A DNA stretch of 20,000 nucleotides from an uncultured virus (IMG/VR IMGVR_UViG_3300044724_001447) (IMGVR_UViG_3300044724_001447); one strand, 5' to 3'. Positions 1,369 to 18,146 are shown, numbered from the stretch's first letter. Numbers and translations: made by a program. The notes: generated from the letters alone by a model not told the origin.

Positions 1369-1596
1369 ATGCCGATACAAAGAAAAGGGGTAAGTAAAGG
1401 TGATATGGTTCGTGCTATAAAAGGTATTGAACTACATCTTATGCAACTTCAACAACACATTGTAATGATAGATAATATCTTAGATAAATATATCGTTATG
1501 AAAAAAGACAAAGACAAATTCGTAGAGTTTATGGAAAATGAACATAAACAAGAACAACGTAAGCAAAGCAGAAAAAGCACTAAAACTAGCAAGTAA
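1369..1596 (+). CDS. Hypothetical helical protein upstream of TerL
   Basis: AGGAG Shine-Dalgarno immediately upstream; 75 aa; overlaps the TerL 5' end by 59 nt. Confidence 0.65.
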   Translation: MPIQRKGVSKGDMVRAIKGIELHLMQLQQHIVMIDNILDKYIVMKKDKDKFVEFMENEHKQEQRKQSRKSTKTSK

Positions 1597-3109
1597 AGAC
1601 TTAATAGCTTTTGGTAAACTTTTTCTTCCTGATGATTTCATGAGGAGTGAAACACCTCCATTTCATTACGAAATGGCTGATGCTATTGATGATAATAATG
1701 TAAAACAATTAGCTGTTATTTTACCTAGAGGACACGGAAAAACTGTGTTAACTAAATGTTCTATTATTAAAGATTTTTGTTTTTGTCCAAAAGATGATAT
1801 GTTGTTTTATGCTTGGGTATCAGCAACGCAAAAATTAAGTACTGGTAATATGGATTATATCAAGTACCACTTTGAATACAATGAAAAAATAAAATACTAC
1901 TTTGGTAGTTTGAAGGGAAAAAAATGGACAGAAGAAGATGTGGAGTTATCCAATGGATGTAAACTTATTAGTAAATCGAATGTTGCGGGTATTAGAGGGG
2001 GTGCTAAATTACACAAAAGATACGACCTCATCATTCTTGACGACTTTGAACACGAAGCAAATACTATCACAGCTGAAGCACGGGCTAAAAATAGCAATCT
2101 CGTTACTGCTGTTGTTTATCCTGCTATTGAGCCTCATACTGGTCGTCTTCGGGTCAATGGTACTCCTGTGCACTATGATAGCTTTATCAATAACCTCATC
2201 ATTAATTATGAGCGTAGTAAAAAAAGCAAAGATGATTTTGCATGGAGAGTAATTACTTACAAAGCAATACAACCAGATGGTACATCGCTTTGGGATAGTT
2301 GGTTCCCTGTATCTAAGTTAGAAGAAAAGAAAAAGTTTTATCAAGATAGTGGAACGCCTAGCAAGTTCTATCAAGAATATATGATGGAAGTACAATCTGA
2401 AGAAGATTCAGTTTGGGGTAGAAAACACGTAAAGTACTGGGAAGGTTATTATGATTACGATGAAGGTGAAAGTCAAGGATATATCAACATTGATGGATTA
2501 AGAACTCCTGTAAATACGTTTATTGGATGCGACCCAGCAACAGACATTAATACAAAAAATGCAGACTTTAGTGTAATCATGGTAGTTGCAGTTGATGCGA
2601 ATAATAATCGTTATGTACTAGAATATGAACGCCATCGTAGTATTCCTACATTAGGAGCAAAAGATGTTGATGGAAAGATTATAGACAAAAAAGGTGTAGT
2701 AGATTATATTATAGAGTTGTATAAAAAATATAATTGCAAACAAGCTACAGTAGAAGATGTAGCTATGAATCGTAGTATTCTGCAAGCATTGAACGATGAA
2801 AGAAGAAGAATTAATCGTTATGATATAGCTGTTATACCTGAAAAACCAGGTGGACAACAAAAAAGAAACAGAATATATTCAGGTTTATCTGGTATTTTTT
2901 CTGTAGGTTCTTTATATTTAAGGGAAAATATGTTTGATTTGGTTAACGAAATTGTAACTTTCGGACCAAGAATGGCGCATGATGACACAATTGAAGCACT
3001 TTATTATGCAAATTTACACGCATTTCCGCCTAATTATTCAAACAATGGTACAGAAAAACCAAAATGGTACAAACCAAAACGTAAAGCAAAAAGCTGGATA
3101 GTAGCTTAG
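1538..3109 (+). CDS. terL: Terminase large subunit
   Basis: Walker A LPRGHGKT, Walker B LIILDDFE, coupling motif NGTP, and an RNase H-like nuclease with GCDPA and HDDTIEAL; located upstream of portal and capsid genes. Confidence 0.93.
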   Translation: MNINKNNVSKAEKALKLASKDLIAFGKLFLPDDFMRSETPPFHYEMADAIDDNNVKQLAVILPRGHGKTVLTKCSIIKDFCFCPKDDMLFYAWVSATQKLSTGNMDYIKYHFEYNEKIKYYFGSLKGKKWTEEDVELSNGCKLISKSNVAGIRGGAKLHKRYDLIILDDFEHEANTITAEARAKNSNLVTAVVYPAIEPHTGRLRVNGTPVHYDSFINNLIINYERSKKSKDDFAWRVITYKAIQPDGTSLWDSWFPVSKLEEKKKFYQDSGTPSKFYQEYMMEVQSEEDSVWGRKHVKYWEGYYDYDEGESQGYINIDGLRTPVNTFIGCDPATDINTKNADFSVIMVVAVDANNNRYVLEYERHRSIPTLGAKDVDGKIIDKKGVVDYIIELYKKYNCKQATVEDVAMNRSILQALNDERRRINRYDIAVIPEKPGGQQKRNRIYSGLSGIFSVGSLYLRENMFDLVNEIVTFGPRMAHDDTIEALYYANLHAFPPNYSNNGTEKPKWYKPKRKAKSWIVA

Positions 3110-3910: not shown

Positions 3911-6133
3911 ATGGCACGTAAAAGCAAAGCAGAAACAAATAAAGAGTTATTTAATAAAGCTAATAATTATTATAGAAAAAAATGGTTTAGCGATTCTCAG
4001 AAAGGAATGGACTTTTATTTAAATGACCAATTATCAGCTGAGGAAAAAGAAGATTTAAGAGAAGGTGGTATGCCAGACTTTATTATTAATCGTATTACAC
4101 CAGCGATTGATATTATGAAATTTTTTATTACGGCTAACAATCCTAGATGGCAAGCAGTTGGTGTAGAGGGTAGTGATGCTGATATAGCACATATCCATAG
4201 TATGATTGCTGAACATTCATGGCATTTGTCCAGTGGTAAAAGTTTATTTTCTGAAGTAATTCAAGACTCACTTGTTAAAGGTGTAGGGTTTTTTAAAGTA
4301 GAAATAGACCCAGATGCTGATAATGGTATGGGTGAAGTAGTTTATAAATCTATAGACCCTTATGATGTTTATGTAGACCCTATGAGTAGAGACTTTCTTT
4401 TTAGAGATGCAAACTATATTATAGTACAAAAAAATATTTCTAAGACATCTTTAATACAAATGTTTCCTGACATGAAGCGTAAAATTATTCGTGCATCAGG
4501 TATAACACAAACAAAACAATATTCTAATAGAGATATACACGAATCAGATAGTATTCAACCAGGCGATTTAGAACACGAAGCTTATACATTAGAAGGAGAA
4601 AGAGATGATATTCTTGACTTTTATGAAGTATATACAAAAGAAAAAATACCTCATGTTAATGTTTGGTTAAGAAAACCTCCTACAGAAAGAGAACTTCAAA
4701 AGATTAAAGAAGCTACACAAAAAGATATTTTAAATATGCAAGAAGAGATGGAAGTTGTTCTAAAAGAAAAAGAACAAGAATTCCAAATGTTAGTACAAAA
4801 AGGAGAAATGTTAGAAGAGAGAGCTGAAATAGAATCTCAAAAACTATTTGAACAAATGCAATCTAGAATTGAAGAACAACAAGCATTAATGGAAGCAGAA
4901 TTAATTAGGTCTCAAACAAGAACCAAACAAATTGTTATGTCAAAAGTACAATTTGAAAACTTAGTAAAAGACCCATCTTTTAGAGAGCAAGTAGTAGAAA
5001 GCGTACCATTCTTCAAAACACAAATTAAAGTAACTGCTTCTGCGGGTGATATGTTTTTATATGAACAAGTATTACCTATAGAAGACTATCCTATTGTTCC
5101 AATACCTTATCAACATACAAATACACCTTATGCTGTAAGTGCTGTTATACCAATGATAGGTAAACAAAGAGAGATAAATAAATCACATCAAATTATGCTA
5201 CACAATGCAAACTTGGCATCAAATCTTAGATGGTTATATACCGAAGGAAGTGTTGATGAAGAAGAGTGGGAAAAATATTCAAGTAGTCCTGGAGCTATGT
5301 TAAAATATAGACAAGGATTTCAACCACCTAATCCAATACAACCATTGCCTATTAATAATGCATTCTACACAGTAACCCAACAAGGTAAACAAGATATAGA
5401 ATATATTAGCGGTATATCATCAAGTATGCAAGGTATTGGTAGACCAAGTTCTGAAACATATCGTGGTTTATTAGCAATGGATGAATATGGTACAAGAAGA
5501 ATTAGACAATTTGTTAACAATGTAGTAGAACCATCACTTGAACACTTAGGTAAAGTATTTATGCAATTTGCACAATTTACTTACACTACACAAAAAGTGT
5601 TTAGAATTGTACAGCCAGAACAAGGGCAAACACAAGGTGAAGTACAAGAAGTTTCTATCAATATACCTATCTATAATGATTTTGGTAAGGTAGTAGAAAG
5701 ATTTAATGATTATGCTTCAGCTAAATTTGATGTTAGAATTATTGCTGGTTCAACACAACCACTTAATAGATGGGCATTGTTAGAAGAATACTTTAAATGG
5801 TATCAAGCTGGATTGATTGACGATGTAGCTATGCTAGAGCAAACTGATATACGTAATAAAAAACAATTACTACAACGTAAAAGTATGTATGCACAAATGA
5901 AACAACAACTAGCAAATGCAGAAAATGCTATGAAAAGTCAACGAGGTACAATTGAAACATTAGAAAGACAATTAGTACAAGCTGGTATTAAAGATAAATT
6001 AAATGAAAGTTCTAAAGTAATGGATAAAGAGCTTAATAGAAGTGTTGCAGCTCAACGACTAATTAGAAGTCGTATGCAAGACAAAGAAAAAATTCAACAA
6101 GAAAATGTTGATAATGATAAAAACGTACAGTAA
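3911..6133 (+). CDS. Portal protein (P22-like, long)
   Basis: 740 aa between TerL and scaffold; N-terminal DFY..DQ...P...INRI.P.I pattern, QREINK and EYISGIS segments, and a C-terminal coiled coil typical of P22-like portals. Confidence 0.85.
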   Translation: MARKSKAETNKELFNKANNYYRKKWFSDSQKGMDFYLNDQLSAEEKEDLREGGMPDFIINRITPAIDIMKFFITANNPRWQAVGVEGSDADIAHIHSMIAEHSWHLSSGKSLFSEVIQDSLVKGVGFFKVEIDPDADNGMGEVVYKSIDPYDVYVDPMSRDFLFRDANYIIVQKNISKTSLIQMFPDMKRKIIRASGITQTKQYSNRDIHESDSIQPGDLEHEAYTLEGERDDILDFYEVYTKEKIPHVNVWLRKPPTERELQKIKEATQKDILNMQEEMEVVLKEKEQEFQMLVQKGEMLEERAEIESQKLFEQMQSRIEEQQALMEAELIRSQTRTKQIVMSKVQFENLVKDPSFREQVVESVPFFKTQIKVTASAGDMFLYEQVLPIEDYPIVPIPYQHTNTPYAVSAVIPMIGKQREINKSHQIMLHNANLASNLRWLYTEGSVDEEEWEKYSSSPGAMLKYRQGFQPPNPIQPLPINNAFYTVTQQGKQDIEYISGISSSMQGIGRPSSETYRGLLAMDEYGTRRIRQFVNNVVEPSLEHLGKVFMQFAQFTYTTQKVFRIVQPEQGQTQGEVQEVSINIPIYNDFGKVVERFNDYASAKFDVRIIAGSTQPLNRWALLEEYFKWYQAGLIDDVAMLEQTDIRNKKQLLQRKSMYAQMKQQLANAENAMKSQRGTIETLERQLVQAGIKDKLNESSKVMDKELNRSVAAQRLIRSRMQDKEKIQQENVDNDKNVQ

Positions 6134-6153: not shown

Positions 6154-7017
6154 ATGGATAATAACAAGGATAACTTACTAGTAGATGATGCACAACGTGC
6201 AGAACTTCCAGTAACTCCCACTGAGAACGATACTGTGGCTGAAGATTTTTTTTCTCAGCTTGATAGACAAGTTATGGGTGAAGTGGTAGAACAGCCAAAT
6301 GTAGAAGCTCAAGTAGAACAGACAACTCCAATTCAGGACCCTGTTGCAGAGCAAAATACTGAATTTGATTCAGTAAATTGGGAAAAGCGATATAGTGATT
6401 CGTCAAGAGAAGCAAAACGACTTAACAATCAATTGCAAGACATAGAACCATATATGCCTTTACTCAATGCAATGAAAGAGGACCCAAATTTAATTTCTCA
6501 TGTGAGAGGTTATTTTGAGGGTGGTGGCTCAGCTCCTAAGAGCGTAAAAGAGCAACTTGGCTTAGATGAAGATTTCATTTTTGATTATGATGATGCTTTG
6601 TCAAACCCTGACTCTCAATCTGCAAAGTTGTTTAATGCAACAGTAGATGGAGTTGTACAAAGAAGGCTTGGTGATTTTGCAAAACAACAATCTGAACAAT
6701 CACGTAGAGCTTCTGAAGAAACTAGTTTTAAATCAAAACATAATGTTTCAGATGAAGACTATCAAGATTTGATGAAGTATGCAAAGTCCCACAAGTTAAC
6801 ATTAGAAGATGTGTATTATTTAAAAAATAGAGATAATAGAGACAATGAAGTCGCTAATAACACTAGAAATGAAGTAATACAACAAATGAAAAATGTTAGA
6901 CAAATGCCTACTAGTGTAGCGTCAAGCGGGAATACACAAAGAGAAGAAAAATCAGTAGATGATGCTGTCTTTGATAAGTTGTTAGCCGAAGGAACTGAGT
7001 TAAACAAATTGATGTAA
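6154..7017 (+). CDS. Capsid scaffolding protein
   Basis: Acidic low-complexity N-terminus, helical WEKRYSDSSREAKRL segment, position between portal and MCP, strong SD AGAAGGAG. Confidence 0.75.
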   Translation: MDNNKDNLLVDDAQRAELPVTPTENDTVAEDFFSQLDRQVMGEVVEQPNVEAQVEQTTPIQDPVAEQNTEFDSVNWEKRYSDSSREAKRLNNQLQDIEPYMPLLNAMKEDPNLISHVRGYFEGGGSAPKSVKEQLGLDEDFIFDYDDALSNPDSQSAKLFNATVDGVVQRRLGDFAKQQSEQSRRASEETSFKSKHNVSDEDYQDLMKYAKSHKLTLEDVYYLKNRDNRDNEVANNTRNEVIQQMKNVRQMPTSVASSGNTQREEKSVDDAVFDKLLAEGTELNKLM

Positions 7018-7030
7018 TAATAACTCAACA

Positions 7031-7050
7031 ACCCCGAGGAGGGTAATAAC
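7031..7050 (+). promoter_or_regulatory. MCP ribosome-binding leader (strong SD within a short ACCC/GGGT stem)
   Basis: ACCCCGAGGAGGGTAATAAC precedes the ATG at 7051; GAGGAGG SD; ACCC 7031-7034 can pair with GGGT 7041-7044. Confidence 0.6.
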
Positions 7051-8589
7051 ATGGCAGATACAAGTTATCCAGCGTCAAGTCCATTGGCGTTGTCAACAAG
7101 TACAGGCTTAAGCCAGGGTTATGCGGCATCACAAGGTTCTTCACTAGCGACAGGAGATTTACGTAGAAGATACGACTTTTCTGAAAGATTCGGAGAGTTG
7201 GCAATTGACCAAACTCCATTTTTCAGACTAGTTTCTTCATTGGCTAAGAAACCAACTGATGACCCCCAGTTTAAGTTTACCGAAAAGAGACATTCTTTTC
7301 ACAAAAGATACGCATACGTAGTAGGATTTAATAATGGAACATCTGATGTTTTTACTGATGCAACATTAGTAGATACTAGTGCAGGTGCAATAGCAGCAGG
7401 TGGTACAGTAAAGCTATTTATGGCTACTGATTACTTTAGTGCTGGTAATATTCAAAATATACAAGGTCAATCTAACGGAGCAATCAAAGTTGGAGACTCA
7501 GGTACAGCACCAGAATGGATTATGGCTAATCAAATTCTTAAAGTTCCTGTAAGTTCTACAACAGGTGGCGCAGTTAATGACTACATATTAGTTCGTGTAA
7601 CAGCAGTTGGAGCACAAGAAGCAGCAGACCTATCAGGTGGCGGTGGTTCAGGAACAGCTGAGGTTAAAGAAGTAACAGGTAAAATCTTAAGAAGTTCTTC
7701 AAGTGTAGAACTTTCTACATTTGCTAGTGATGCAGGTGCAGATTGTGTTGTTTACAATGAAGACATTGCTGAAACTTTAGAACAAAAAAGAACTTATGTT
7801 GTAGGTAATTCTTATGGCGAAGGTTCTTCTTTATCTGGAGAAAGCTTCAAAGATAACCCATATTCAACTGGATTTGGACAAACACAGATTTTTAGAACTG
7901 AGTTTGGTATGACAAATACAGCTAGAGCAACAGCTCTTAAATATGAACCAAATGAATGGGCTAGAACCTGGAGAGAAAAACTAATTGAACACAAGTGGGA
8001 AATTGAACACGCTGGTTTATTTAGTGCTCAAGCTTCAGTAGATGGTGTAGCTCATACACAAGGTGCTATTGATTATGTTCTTAACTATGGTAATATATTT
8101 GACTTAACACTAGCAACGAAAACAATTGATGATTTCTTGCAAGATATGTCACAATATCAAGACCCAAGATACAATCAAGATGCAGCTACAGTCTACATGT
8201 GTAGTACTGCAGTTTACACTTGGTTCCACAAAATTGGTGGGTTCTTTAAGAACAATATTGGAATTGATTCACAGTTCCAAGCAGACCTAGCCGTTACAGG
8301 TAGAAAGAAAGTAATGGGACTAGATGTAACTGAAATCTCTACTGTTTATGGTAACATGAACATCGCAAGATGTGTTGCTTTAGATAGTACTGATGTCAAG
8401 ATTCTAGCGTTAAATATGAACAACGTAGCTTACAGACCACTAGTTGGTAATGGAGTTAATAGAGATACTGCGGTATACGTAGGAGTTCAAAATCTTGAAA
8501 ACACAGGTGTTGACAAGAGAGTAGACATCATATTAACAGAAGCTGGTTTTGAATTTATGATGCCAGAATCACACGCTATTTGGAAATAA
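7051..8589 (+). CDS. Major capsid protein (HK97 fold, SU10/DUF5309-like)
   Basis: 512 aa after the scaffold; TPFF..., F.F.E, GN...EG, TQIFRT, EH...F, G.......I.T.YG.M and RPL....D...ILTE.G pattern; very strong SD. Confidence 0.85.
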   Translation: MADTSYPASSPLALSTSTGLSQGYAASQGSSLATGDLRRRYDFSERFGELAIDQTPFFRLVSSLAKKPTDDPQFKFTEKRHSFHKRYAYVVGFNNGTSDVFTDATLVDTSAGAIAAGGTVKLFMATDYFSAGNIQNIQGQSNGAIKVGDSGTAPEWIMANQILKVPVSSTTGGAVNDYILVRVTAVGAQEAADLSGGGGSGTAEVKEVTGKILRSSSSVELSTFASDAGADCVVYNEDIAETLEQKRTYVVGNSYGEGSSLSGESFKDNPYSTGFGQTQIFRTEFGMTNTARATALKYEPNEWARTWREKLIEHKWEIEHAGLFSAQASVDGVAHTQGAIDYVLNYGNIFDLTLATKTIDDFLQDMSQYQDPRYNQDAATVYMCSTAVYTWFHKIGGFFKNNIGIDSQFQADLAVTGRKKVMGLDVTEISTVYGNMNIARCVALDSTDVKILALNMNNVAYRPLVGNGVNRDTAVYVGVQNLENTGVDKRVDIILTEAGFEFMMPESHAIWK

Positions 8590-8599
8590 TAGCTAAATT

Positions 8600-8654
8600 G
8601 TAGATGGTCCCTTGAGGTTCTTTACCTCCTTTCTCCCTCGGGGGACTCATCTGC
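8600..8654 (+). ncRNA. Structured RNA hairpin with anti-Shine-Dalgarno loop in the MCP 3' UTR
   Basis: 18-bp stem (8600-8617 with 8636-8654, one bulged U, three G-U pairs) closing the loop UUCUUUACCUCCUUUCUC; no U-tract follows. Confidence 0.6.
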
Positions 8655-8668
8655 GTTAGGATGCAACT

Positions 8669-9535
8669 ATGAAATTGTGGGAAAAAGTTAACAATATTAC
8701 TGGGAATAGCTCGAAAGCTAGATTTTTAATTGAGTATATCAATGCTGGTTCTAAGTTTATTATGTCATCATTGCCTGAAAAATGGTTATGGACTATAGCT
8801 ACTGAAACTGAAATAAGTGGATGGAATAGTTCTGGAACAAGTTTAATAGGTTCTGGTTCTGATGTAGCGTATGATAAAATACTAGGAGTCTATAGATATG
8901 AAGGTAGCAAACGTAGAATAGCTAAAGAAATATCAGATAAGTTTATACACTCAACTGATGAAGCTGGTAGTCTTTCATTGCCAACAAAAATGTTTCCAGT
9001 TTTTTATAAGTTAAATGGCAAGATATTTATTAAGCCAGACCCAGATTATAATGCATCTTCCTCACAACAATCTTACACACCAGTAGGGGGTAGCTCTACA
9101 AATGTAGCAGCTTCAGGCGGAGACAAAGGAGTGGTAATTTATTCAGCCCCCCCAATCATTGATGAAAATACCGAAAATTGGGTATTATCAGAATATGAAA
9201 ATGTTGCATTACATTATGCAGCTTCATTAGATATGTTAAGATTAGCTAGTGTATCTGATGCTGAAAAAATATTAGAAGGTGGATATGCCAGTGTAGATGC
9301 TACAAGCAAAACAAGTTTAAGTGCTATACATTGGTTAGAAGATGAAGACCCTGAAATGGCTAATGCAGTTATTCAAGTGTCTCAGGGAGATTTAAGTTTA
9401 GCTAATCAAAGATTACAGACAGCAATGGCATTTTATCAAAGAGCAGTTGCTGAATTACGTTCTATAACTGGAGCATTTGCAGTTCCTGAAGAACAACAAC
9501 AATCACAACGTAAAGAACAAGGAATGACAACATAA
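8669..9535 (+). CDS. Head-tail adaptor / ring-like virion protein
   Basis: First gene after the MCP; N-terminal helices (EYINAG), PVFY....KIFIKPDP strand region, and C-terminal helices (YENVALHYAA) as in podovirus adaptor proteins. Confidence 0.55.
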   Translation: MKLWEKVNNITGNSSKARFLIEYINAGSKFIMSSLPEKWLWTIATETEISGWNSSGTSLIGSGSDVAYDKILGVYRYEGSKRRIAKEISDKFIHSTDEAGSLSLPTKMFPVFYKLNGKIFIKPDPDYNASSSQQSYTPVGGSSTNVAASGGDKGVVIYSAPPIIDENTENWVLSEYENVALHYAASLDMLRLASVSDAEKILEGGYASVDATSKTSLSAIHWLEDEDPEMANAVIQVSQGDLSLANQRLQTAMAFYQRAVAELRSITGAFAVPEEQQQSQRKEQGMTT

Positions 9536-9813
9536 TGAAAGTTTTAGAAGTAATGGAACGAGCGAATACACGTGATACTAACCTAGTAATTGCGTATATT
9601 AAAGATGCAATATTAGAGATACAATCTAACAATGAGTTAGATACTGCGGTAGATAAACAAAATATTGTTGAAGATACAAGAGATTATTCATTACCAGCAG
9701 GTATGATTGCATTAAAAAGTGTTAGTATATTAGATACTGAAGATGATAATAAATACAAAGCAATTAGAAGATTGCAACACGACCCATTAGTTACTGAGGA
9801 TACAAATCCATGA
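9535..9813 (+). CDS. Adaptor-like protein, N-terminal half
   Basis: AYIKDAILEI...DYSLPAGMIALKSV resembles the N-terminal part of podovirus adaptor proteins; TAATG coupling. Confidence 0.5.
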   Translation: MKVLEVMERANTRDTNLVIAYIKDAILEIQSNNELDTAVDKQNIVEDTRDYSLPAGMIALKSVSILDTEDDNKYKAIRRLQHDPLVTEDTNP

Positions 9814-17621: not shown

Positions 17622-17795
17622 ATGGCTAAAGAACAAAATACAGCAAAAGAAGTAGTTCAAGAACCTCTTGATTTGCAAGAACAATTAAAGGTAATTGAAG
17701 CTCAAATTGCTGAGTTACGTGGAACACATAACTATATAAATAGTCTTTTACAACAAGGCTTTACAGTTATTCCACCAGCTAAAGCTGAAAAGTAG
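17622..17795 (+). CDS. 57-aa hypothetical coiled-coil protein (not in ORF track)
   Basis: AAGGAG SD; MAKEQNTAKEVVQEPLDLQEQLKVIEAQIAELRGTHNYINSLLQQGFTVIPPAKAEK*. Confidence 0.8.
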   Translation: MAKEQNTAKEVVQEPLDLQEQLKVIEAQIAELRGTHNYINSLLQQGFTVIPPAKAEK

Positions 17796-17827
17796 AAAGG
17801 GAGGGGGAGAAATCCCCCTAACTTTAA
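17796..17827 (+). terminator. GC-rich hairpin with GAAA tetraloop, terminator-like
   Basis: AGGGGGA-GAAA-TCCCCCT (17802-17819), extendable by AAAG/CTTT; only a weak U-tract follows. Confidence 0.55.
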
Positions 17828-17849
17828 TTATAAATAATAGGGGAATAAA

Positions 17850-18146
17850 ATGGAAGTCGGTAAAGACACTAAATTTACACTATCTATAGAAACTGCAATC
17901 AGTATCATTGTAACTATTGGTATGATTATAGGTATGTGGTTTACTCTTCAAGCAGATATTGAAGAAGCTAAACTATTACCAGAACCAGAAGTATCACGTA
18001 TGGAGTATGATTTAAAAGACCAAATGATTCGTGAATCAATTTTGAATACTGAAGGTAAAGTAGATAAACTTGAAGAAAAGGTAGACGATATTAAAGAAGA
18101 TACTAAGATGATTCAAGAAACCCTGATAAACATGAATAATAACTAA
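17850..18146 (+). CDS. Single-pass membrane protein with C-terminal coiled coil
   Basis: Hydrophobic AISIIVTIGMIIGMWFTL, then heptads (VDKLEEKVDDIKED); possible lysis or envelope accessory protein. Confidence 0.65.
   Translation: MEVGKDTKFTLSIETAISIIVTIGMIIGMWFTLQADIEEAKLLPEPEVSRMEYDLKDQMIRESILNTEGKVDKLEEKVDDIKEDTKMIQETLINMNNN

Follow-up and report, generated by a model that had tools for sequence, protein, structure and literature searches.

The window (the whole stretch of DNA analysed, 20,000 nucleotides) is a phage structural-gene block with a GC content of 33.4%, in which every gene lies on the + strand. The major capsid protein gene is followed by a hairpin with a long pyrimidine loop, and the features of this region are listed here in their order along the DNA.

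1538–3109, + strand: terminase large subunit.
3911–6133, + strand: portal.
6154–7017, + strand: 287-aa protein.
About 7034–7042, + strand: ribosome-binding site (RBS) of the capsid gene, GAGGAGGGT.
7051–8589, + strand: major capsid protein gene, 512 aa, SU10-like (Pfam SU10_MCP, E 4.4e-17; PHROG major head protein).
8587–8589, + strand: capsid stop codon.
8587–8599, + strand: stop codon and short linker, with stops in further frames (TAATAGCTAA...).
8597–8660, + strand: match to covariance model R1 (74.5 bits, E 4.3e-24).
8600–8617, + strand: 5′ arm of the hairpin (from fold and covariation).
8618–8635, + strand: 18-nt pyrimidine loop, UUCUUUACCUCCUUUCUC (unpaired probability 0.97–1.0; nearly invariant in relatives).
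8624–8634, + strand: ACCUCCUUUCU, identical to the terminal 11 nt of GAUCACCUCCUUUCU-type 16S 3′ tails (sequence compared with Table 1 of PMC6288834).
8636–8654, + strand: 3′ arm of the hairpin, with T8647 bulged (from fold and covariation).
8658–8661, + strand: weak Shine–Dalgarno (SD) sequence (AGGA) of the next gene, 7 nt upstream of its ATG.
8669–9535, + strand: next gene, 288 aa, MKLWEKVNN..., the first after the capsid module (from the ORF list).
9535–9813, + strand: next-but-one ORF, with a weak SU10_adaptor match below the cut-off (Pfam).
Further downstream, + strand: unannotated genes and a 1243-aa tail-fibre protein.

No PHROG or Pfam match was found for the gene at 8669–9535. When the capsid region was compared with 50,697 cultured phage records by blastn and tblastn, no match was obtained; the terminase shares at most 24% identity with those of cultured phages, and the portal gave fragment matches only. 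Two matching contigs, and no more, were found in a genome collection, in MAGs of doubtful binning labelled Dehalococcoidia and Poseidoniales. These (L162 and L163) are phage contigs with the capsid gene, filed under a Dehalococcoidia and a Poseidoniales archaeon label and stemming from a single co-assembly; L162 has an anti-SD loop and L163 a plain GC hairpin. Their placement is more likely a binning artefact than evidence for a host.

The stretch between the capsid stop codon and the hairpin is rich in stops, with TAA TAG, then TAA, then TAG at 8587–8603, upstream of the hairpin. The linker motif is semi-conserved, TAG-TAA-T recurring in relatives, and in the alignment of 30 relatives the columns T4, A5, T8, A9, A10 and T13 are near-invariant. 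Stops placed ahead of the hairpin may keep stray ribosomes from the stem.

The stem comprises 18 pairs, of which 10 are G-C, and includes U-G pairs at 8601/8653, 8612/8641 and 8613/8640. The loop at 8618–8635 (TTCTTTACCTCCTTTCTC) contains a single purine and carries ACCTCCTTTCT at 8624–8634; each of its bases has an unpaired probability of at least 0.97 in the 64-nt hairpin. It starts 29 nt past the capsid stop codon, within a 3′ UTR of ~80 nt that leads directly into the next gene. A 101-nt stretch around it has a minimum free energy of −31.3 kcal/mol (z = −2.36), which 3 of 200 shuffled sequences equal, and the 64-nt hairpin is predicted at −29.1 kcal/mol on the + strand versus −20.4 kcal/mol on the minus strand. 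The coordinates, sequence, 18-bp stem and loop reported in the initial annotation are as it gave them, and the element folds better on the + strand, the strand that it named.

It had further been stated that the hairpin is not a classic intrinsic terminator and that the perfect SD on its minus strand lacks a start codon at a usable spacing, and both statements agree with what was found. There is no T-run 3′ of the stem (GTTAGGATGC, with GUUAGGAUGC following), and the site is absent from a terminator scan. Because a U-tract is missing, the element is not a classic intrinsic terminator; its stem is GC-rich, as in such terminators, and its loop, at 18 nt, is not short. A T-run occurs in a few relatives only (e.g. 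L042). The minus strand reads AAGGAGGT, a perfect SD, and both the sequence and the ORF list show no ATG, GTG or TTG at usable spacing after its GGAGGT and no ORF of at least 60 aa overlapping the site.

As suggested in the initial annotation, Rfam was searched, and the loop and the stem were compared among relatives. A scan of 8300–8950 on both strands against Rfam 15 (4227 models, E ≤10) gave no match overlapping 8593–8668, so that no family in it matches the hairpin; three weak matches lay elsewhere in the scanned stretch, all far below the gathering score. Relatives were taken from IMG/VR, where confirmation succeeded for 287 of 288 candidate stretches; the 80 best were retained as 79 loci, 68 of them covering the capsid stop codon and sufficient downstream sequence. 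By eye, a hairpin with a CCUCC-type loop stands directly 3′ of the capsid gene in 51 of these 68 loci, and in the remaining 17 the capsid gene is followed at once by a small gene (MANPLYGQNK...) with a strong SD. The exact 21-mer made up of the loop and its closing pairs is present in 70 IMG/VR stretches; in 67 it lies no more than 150 nt behind an ORF with the capsid C-terminal motif, and the other three are cut by contig ends.

Covariation was assessed in an alignment of 30 distinct versions from relatives with 16 consensus pairs. The stem was found to covary around a near-invariant loop: for 15 of the 16 pairs both sides have changed in at least one sequence, and 94.2% of stem cells are standard pairs, compared with 82.8 ± 0.9% in shuffled alignments (0 of 500 reach the observed value) and with 39–57% when the 3′ partner was slid as a control. 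Two stem columns are mostly 5′U:3′G, combinations that the opposite strand would present as C-A, which identifies the + strand RNA as the one that folds. Loop positions are nearly all at least 90% conserved in this alignment, the exception being the base just before CCUCC, which among variants may be A, U, G or C.

Three more scans were carried out starting from distant capsid proteins (50–58% identity), which brought the total, with the first set, to 146 distinct downstream regions. With minimum lengths of 10 nt for the loop and 8 pairs for the stem, a script found a CCUCC-type loop in 40 of the 146, a conservative count that missed L244 and L323. Stems of different subgroups cannot be aligned with each other, while their loops can (e.g. 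UUUUCACCUCCUUUCU, UUUUUGCUCCUCCUUUCU, UUAUUCGCCUCCUUUCU, UCGCCUCCUUUC and UUAUUUUCCUCCUUUUUUUC). Among 19 distinct loop variants on unrelated stems, listed by ourselves with the gene-2 cases described below included, CCUCC is kept in 18 and the core CCUCCUU is fixed in 17, and all 19 are U-rich in their 5′ half. Stem lengths are 18–23 bp in the main group and 9–15 bp plus an outer helix in others. In an enrichment survey of 398 related loci (1.15 Mb), in which a hairpin loop was defined as one closed by at least 6 stacked pairs, CCTCCTT lay within such a loop at 31 of 51 distinct + strand sites versus 4 of 91 on the minus strand, and eight permuted 7-mers gave 0–1 loop site per motif. The covariation support is unusually clean, in that stems have been rewritten completely with the loop unchanged.

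The covariance model R1, built from the 30 sequences, has the hairpin as its sole significant site in the window, the next best scoring 8.0 bits (E 3.3). One strong match per contig was also obtained in five whole contigs of 52–72 kb, four of which are estimated to be at least 99% complete; in one of the five (G002, the contig behind L018) a second match lies at the contig end, the sites being 1324–1387 and 52865–52928. About 1.4 kb seems to be repeated at both ends of this ‘linear’ contig, which may reflect terminal redundancy or assembly overlap. The complete relative G003 (53.4 kb, with terminal repeats) has a P22-like portal and an SU10-like capsid, and also encodes DnaB, a Sak annealing protein, a D12 methylase, a 3-TM holin and a 2929-aa familyless protein. 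The last corresponds to the ORF at L159:6489–15278, which has no Pfam match and may encode an internal virion or ejection protein. No tRNAs were found in G003. A bS21 gene was found in 0 of 5 related contigs, and a T7-type RNA polymerase likewise in 0 of 5, in a search whose positive control gave no match either. Taken together, the element is a single-copy, + strand, strongly selected stem–loop with an exposed loop, found 3′ of the capsid module in a family of marine podoviruses that are uncultured and have SU10-like capsids.

Where the small gene 2 follows the capsid gene, the hairpin shifts to behind gene 2. An anti-SD-type loop is borne there by L059/60/61/67 and L063/66, and a GC hairpin with a UUCG tetraloop by L071 and L075/76; in L062 and L073 a CUCUCCU stretch is paired inside the stem. 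Among 59 distinct regions downstream of gene 2, GC hairpins with TTCG or TTTG loops are present in 10, and 1 was scored by script as an anti-SD loop; L479 and L470 are also anti-SD-like by eye, and a further gene comes next in 15 of the 59. Small-loop hairpins (TTCG/TTTG) occur in L163 and L336/L339 as well. Gene 2 itself (L059, L062, L063, L071, L073 and L075) encodes 67–170 aa, of which the N-terminus (MANPLYGQNK) is conserved and the rest varies strongly. The SD of gene 2 and the capsid stop codon overlap, and the gene product may be a capsid decoration or fibre protein. After gene 2 in L415, L422, L425, L447, L448, L454, L460, L475 and L482, a near-palindromic hairpin, AUAUAUGGGGG..UUCG..CCCCCAUAUAU, is found instead of an anti-SD loop, and the gene behind this UUCG-tetraloop hairpin (L415 etc.) has an A-rich leader without an SD. 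In L272, a second CCCUCCCUUU stretch lies directly 3′ of the hairpin, and the next gene has no SD.

A quick IQ-TREE phylogeny of the capsid protein (last 220 residues, 142 rows) places the window in a clade of 44 rows with an SH-aLRT value of 100, all 44 of which have the loop. The loop is found in four or five other tree positions too, and the labelled rows require no fewer than four changes between ‘loop’ and ‘plain’; rows with an unreadable label, owing to a short flank or a start wrongly picked by the script, were left uncounted. As a rule, the capsid module of this family ends with a hairpin, more distant relatives without the long loop keeping one as well, and the long 16S-tail-like loop is an addition that is strictly kept by one large clade. 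Because the hairpin kept at this same boundary is plain, often with a UUCG loop, the stem has a role of its own without the long loop, and because related phages use UUCG-loop hairpins instead, the long loop is dispensable for that role. It thus seems that the stem serves generally as a boundary or stability device, to which the 16S-tail-like loop adds a function.

Across 8624–8634, the 11 nt of identity are to the 16S tail type GAUCACCUCCUUUCU, which is printed for several bacteria (PMC6288834); the tail of the phage host itself may differ. In L245-type loops the identity to the 16S tails printed in that source extends to 12 nt (CACCUCCUUUCU; PMC6288834). Like the 16S 3′ tail, the stretch in the window is single-stranded and accessible; unlike it, the stretch is enclosed in a hairpin loop, whereas the tail ends freely 3′ of helix 45; the bases preceding CCUCC are variable, and no rRNA model matches.

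The relation of the loop to SD sequences was considered gene by gene. By eye, SD motifs at normal spacing precede about 16–17 of the 21 window genes. Predicted duplexes between the loop and the 21 window RBSs have a mean of −7.1 kcal/mol, compared with −4.0 kcal/mol for 2000 random 22-mers, energies that are generic to any anti-SD-like sequence. The best predicted partner of the 21 is the RBS of the capsid gene itself (GAGGAGGGU, −12.4 kcal/mol), and the RBS of the next gene is among the weakest (−5.1 kcal/mol). When loop variants were compared with the capsid RBSs of the same contigs, no complementarity beyond GGAG-type cores was seen. The phage SDs are mostly (U)AGGAG(A) with no AGAAA on the 5′ side, and as that AGAAA is lacking, they leave the conserved UUUCU after CCUCC unexplained; its conservation favours recognition of the tail as such, presumably by a protein or nuclease.

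A long target for the loop was also sought. The best non-self candidate in the window and in G003, 17786–17815 (−18.5 kcal/mol), turned out to be the stop codon and 5′ arm of another hairpin, and the complementarity is not kept in G005, so this candidate was rejected. The other hairpin (17791–17830) is a second conserved intergenic one (GGGGGAG GAAA/loop CCCCC), directly after the stop of a small unlisted ORF and 20 nt upstream of the RBS of the gene at 17850–18146, with z = −3.8 for 91 nt and compensatory stem changes in G002, G005 and G006. With its small loop, it looks like a conventional terminator-type hairpin.

Contigs from RNA libraries (4 libraries from 4 studies) cover the capsid gene, although they show neither ends nor strand and DNA carry-over is possible. 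One of them (run X2) bridges the hairpin as far as 8898 and others stop at 8574 and 8646, transcript ends not being readable from contigs; the absence of cover past about 8950 is uninformative. The initial annotation had also proposed that a basal extension of the stem covers part of the SD of the next gene. Such a helix, CTAA with TTAG, is predicted in the window, where it lowers the unpaired probability of 8656–8659 to 0.19–0.29; in relatives, however, 50% of its cells pair, as in the slid controls, compared with 93–94% in the two real helices. As a conserved feature, the extension was therefore discarded.

Our preferred reading has two layers, the stem acting as a boundary device and the loop providing an added function. 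From its position, the stem would mark where the heavily expressed capsid genes give way to the adaptor and tail genes; there it may end, process or stabilise the capsid mRNA and insulate the next gene, the hairpin presumably being part of the capsid transcript. The loop exposes CCUCCUU(UCU), a copy of the 3′ tail of 16S rRNA, and would pair with SDs in competition with 30S subunits. Its strongest candidate partner is the GAGGAGG site of the capsid mRNA itself, in cis or between molecules, and the consequence of pairing would be that initiation is damped or tuned late in infection, either through icaR-like feedback, in which the 3′ UTR acts on the SD of its own mRNA, or by an RsaE-like action in trans. 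We give a probability of about 0.4 to the loop pairing with SD sites in the way that the C-rich loops of RsaE and RNAIII and the icaR 3′ UTR do; more broadly, as its open loop copies the 16S tail, the hairpin probably impedes or adjusts translation initiation. The anti-SD reading of the initial annotation is still the best one, and it is one that we infer. The suggestion made alongside it, that host translation is shut off, is weakened. About 16–17 of the 21 window genes carry SDs themselves, and global host shut-off is disfavoured because the phage’s own genes use SD sites; as these genes are SD-dependent, an abundant SD competitor would hit the phage too. A wider and more tentative proposal is that a copy of the ribosome’s docking tail, placed in the 3′ end of an abundant late mRNA, serves as a stoichiometric SD competitor or as a decoy for factors that recognise the tail, and so reprograms late initiation; if true, it could mean feedback on capsid synthesis or silencing of messages with strong SDs, for instance.

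The element could also be a boundary or stability hairpin and nothing else, that is, a non-canonical terminator, a site for processing by RNase III or another enzyme, or a block to 3′ exonucleases, with the pyrimidine loop conserved for protein binding. It would then raise capsid mRNA over the downstream genes, the binder being, for example, S1, a cold-shock protein, a Nus-type factor or a phage RNA-binding protein. The wider family keeps a hairpin at the same module boundary, small-loop GC hairpins included, and the U-rich 5′ loop half (19 of 19 variants) and a UUUCU tail that pairing with phage SDs does not need are consistent with such a site. Phage processing hairpins for RNase III, of the T7 type, have about two turns of duplex, and stems of 18–23 bp, or two helices with an internal loop as in L171, resemble phage processing sites. 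Against this stand the missing T-run, which leaves no classic intrinsic terminator, and the open loop of 18 nt, which weakens the case for a pure stability element; moreover, no candidate protein is known, and a fixed core that combines an SD-pairing pentamer with the 16S tail in 17–18 of 19 variants would be a remarkable accident if the loop served to bind an unrelated protein. On balance this explanation is possible, if somewhat doubtful. Alternatively, the loop might sequester a factor of the host or of a defence system that recognises the 16S tail by binding or cutting it; a hibernation factor, a tail-binding ribosomal protein or a toxin cleaving the anti-SD would be examples. Late in infection, ribosomes would thereby be protected or reprogrammed. 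Cleavage of the anti-SD region by toxins has been described (PMC12620021, PMC13284704), and in Bacteroidetes ribosomes the anti-SD can sit in a protein pocket (PMC7797042). The identity reaching past CCUCC, over 11 nt in the window and 12 nt in L245-type loops, and the conservation of UUUCU fit recognition of the tail better than pairing with short phage SDs. We nevertheless regard a decoy of this kind as unlikely: there is no evidence for such a factor in the host, a catalytic nuclease would be poorly titrated, and the base before CCUCC varies (A, U, G or C), unlike in 16S rRNA. Since bS21 was found in 0 of 5 related contigs, there is no link to a phage-encoded S21 either.

A switch acting in cis on the next gene is less probable still. 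Here loop and SD would form a pseudoknot once the lower stem has been opened, perhaps by a ribosome that terminates at the capsid stop, or the SD would be covered by the basal helix; in both cases the first gene after the capsid would have its translation set. The SD of the next gene begins 2–6 nt past the stem in most relatives, the basal helix does reduce the accessibility of 8656–8659 in the window (0.19–0.29), and relatives with UUCG loops mostly have A-rich leaders without an SD, whereas loop-bearing ones have AGGA-type SDs, a contrast that was drawn by eye and is confounded by relatedness. However, the basal helix is no better paired in relatives than slid controls (50% of cells), the RBS of the next gene is among the weakest predicted partners (−5.1 kcal/mol), no alternative comes near the stability of the main stem, and the full 18-bp stem would geometrically forbid pairing of loop and SD. 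That the element is not an RNA at all, and is instead a DNA-level signal, a small coding region or the start of a minus-strand gene at the perfect SD, is scarcely credible. The minus-strand reading AAGGAGGT speaks for it; the absence of a start codon at usable spacing and of an ORF, the stop codons upstream of the hairpin, the compensatory stem changes with 5′U:3′G pairs that fit a + strand RNA, and stems that differ wholly between subgroups with the loop kept all argue for an RNA.

With this hairpin, a new RNA family is added for marine podoviruses, in a group that is abundant and uncultured; the part of the element that stays fixed is the same sequence that ribosomes use for finding messages. 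If the loop competes for SDs or for 16S-tail factors, initiation would be tuned or hijacked from a structural-gene mRNA by RNA alone, in an element of only ~60 nt. The hairpin is also a ready marker of the end of the capsid module in metagenomic contigs.

No description of the hairpin or of its loop motif was found in the literature. In a catalogue of 8,495 candidate RNAs from IMG/VR, the SD is unmentioned in the text (PMC10690425); a search covering part of its supplements gave no match, and the motif may be listed among them without being described. The hairpin is a new RNA family, putatively of a known functional kind. Intrinsic terminators and other inter-gene hairpins are familiar behind phage capsid genes, the T7 late terminator being an example. 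The present element resembles that type as a stable GC-containing hairpin behind a highly expressed late gene, at the boundary to less-expressed genes, and differs from it in the absence of a U-tract and in its sequence-conserved loop of 18 nt. Hairpin loops of RNAIII are C-rich and of the anti-SD type, akin to the phage loop. Small RNAs of the RsaE class, known from Staphylococcus and Bacillus, carry unpaired C-rich (UCCC) motifs, and that of RsaE blocks the formation of initiation complexes (PMC2790875). With this class the phage element shares a stable hairpin and a conserved, unpaired C-rich motif complementary to the SD, a block of initiation being only proposed here; unlike RsaE, it shows no sequence or structural homology to that RNA, presents CCUCCUU(UCU) and not UCCC, and belongs to the 3′ UTR of a phage mRNA and not to a separate sRNA gene. 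In the icaR mRNA of S. aureus, a 3′ UTR motif pairs with the SD of its own mRNA, a pairing that was shown by experiment and that creates an RNase III substrate (PMC3868564). Here too an anti-SD motif in a 3′ UTR is complementary to the SD of the same gene, on what we infer to be a single transcript, whereas the pairing is predicted and the 3′ UTR is ~80 nt, with the next operon gene following at once. In its putative function, the hairpin is most like the SD-binding RNAs with C-rich loops and the icaR 3′ UTR.
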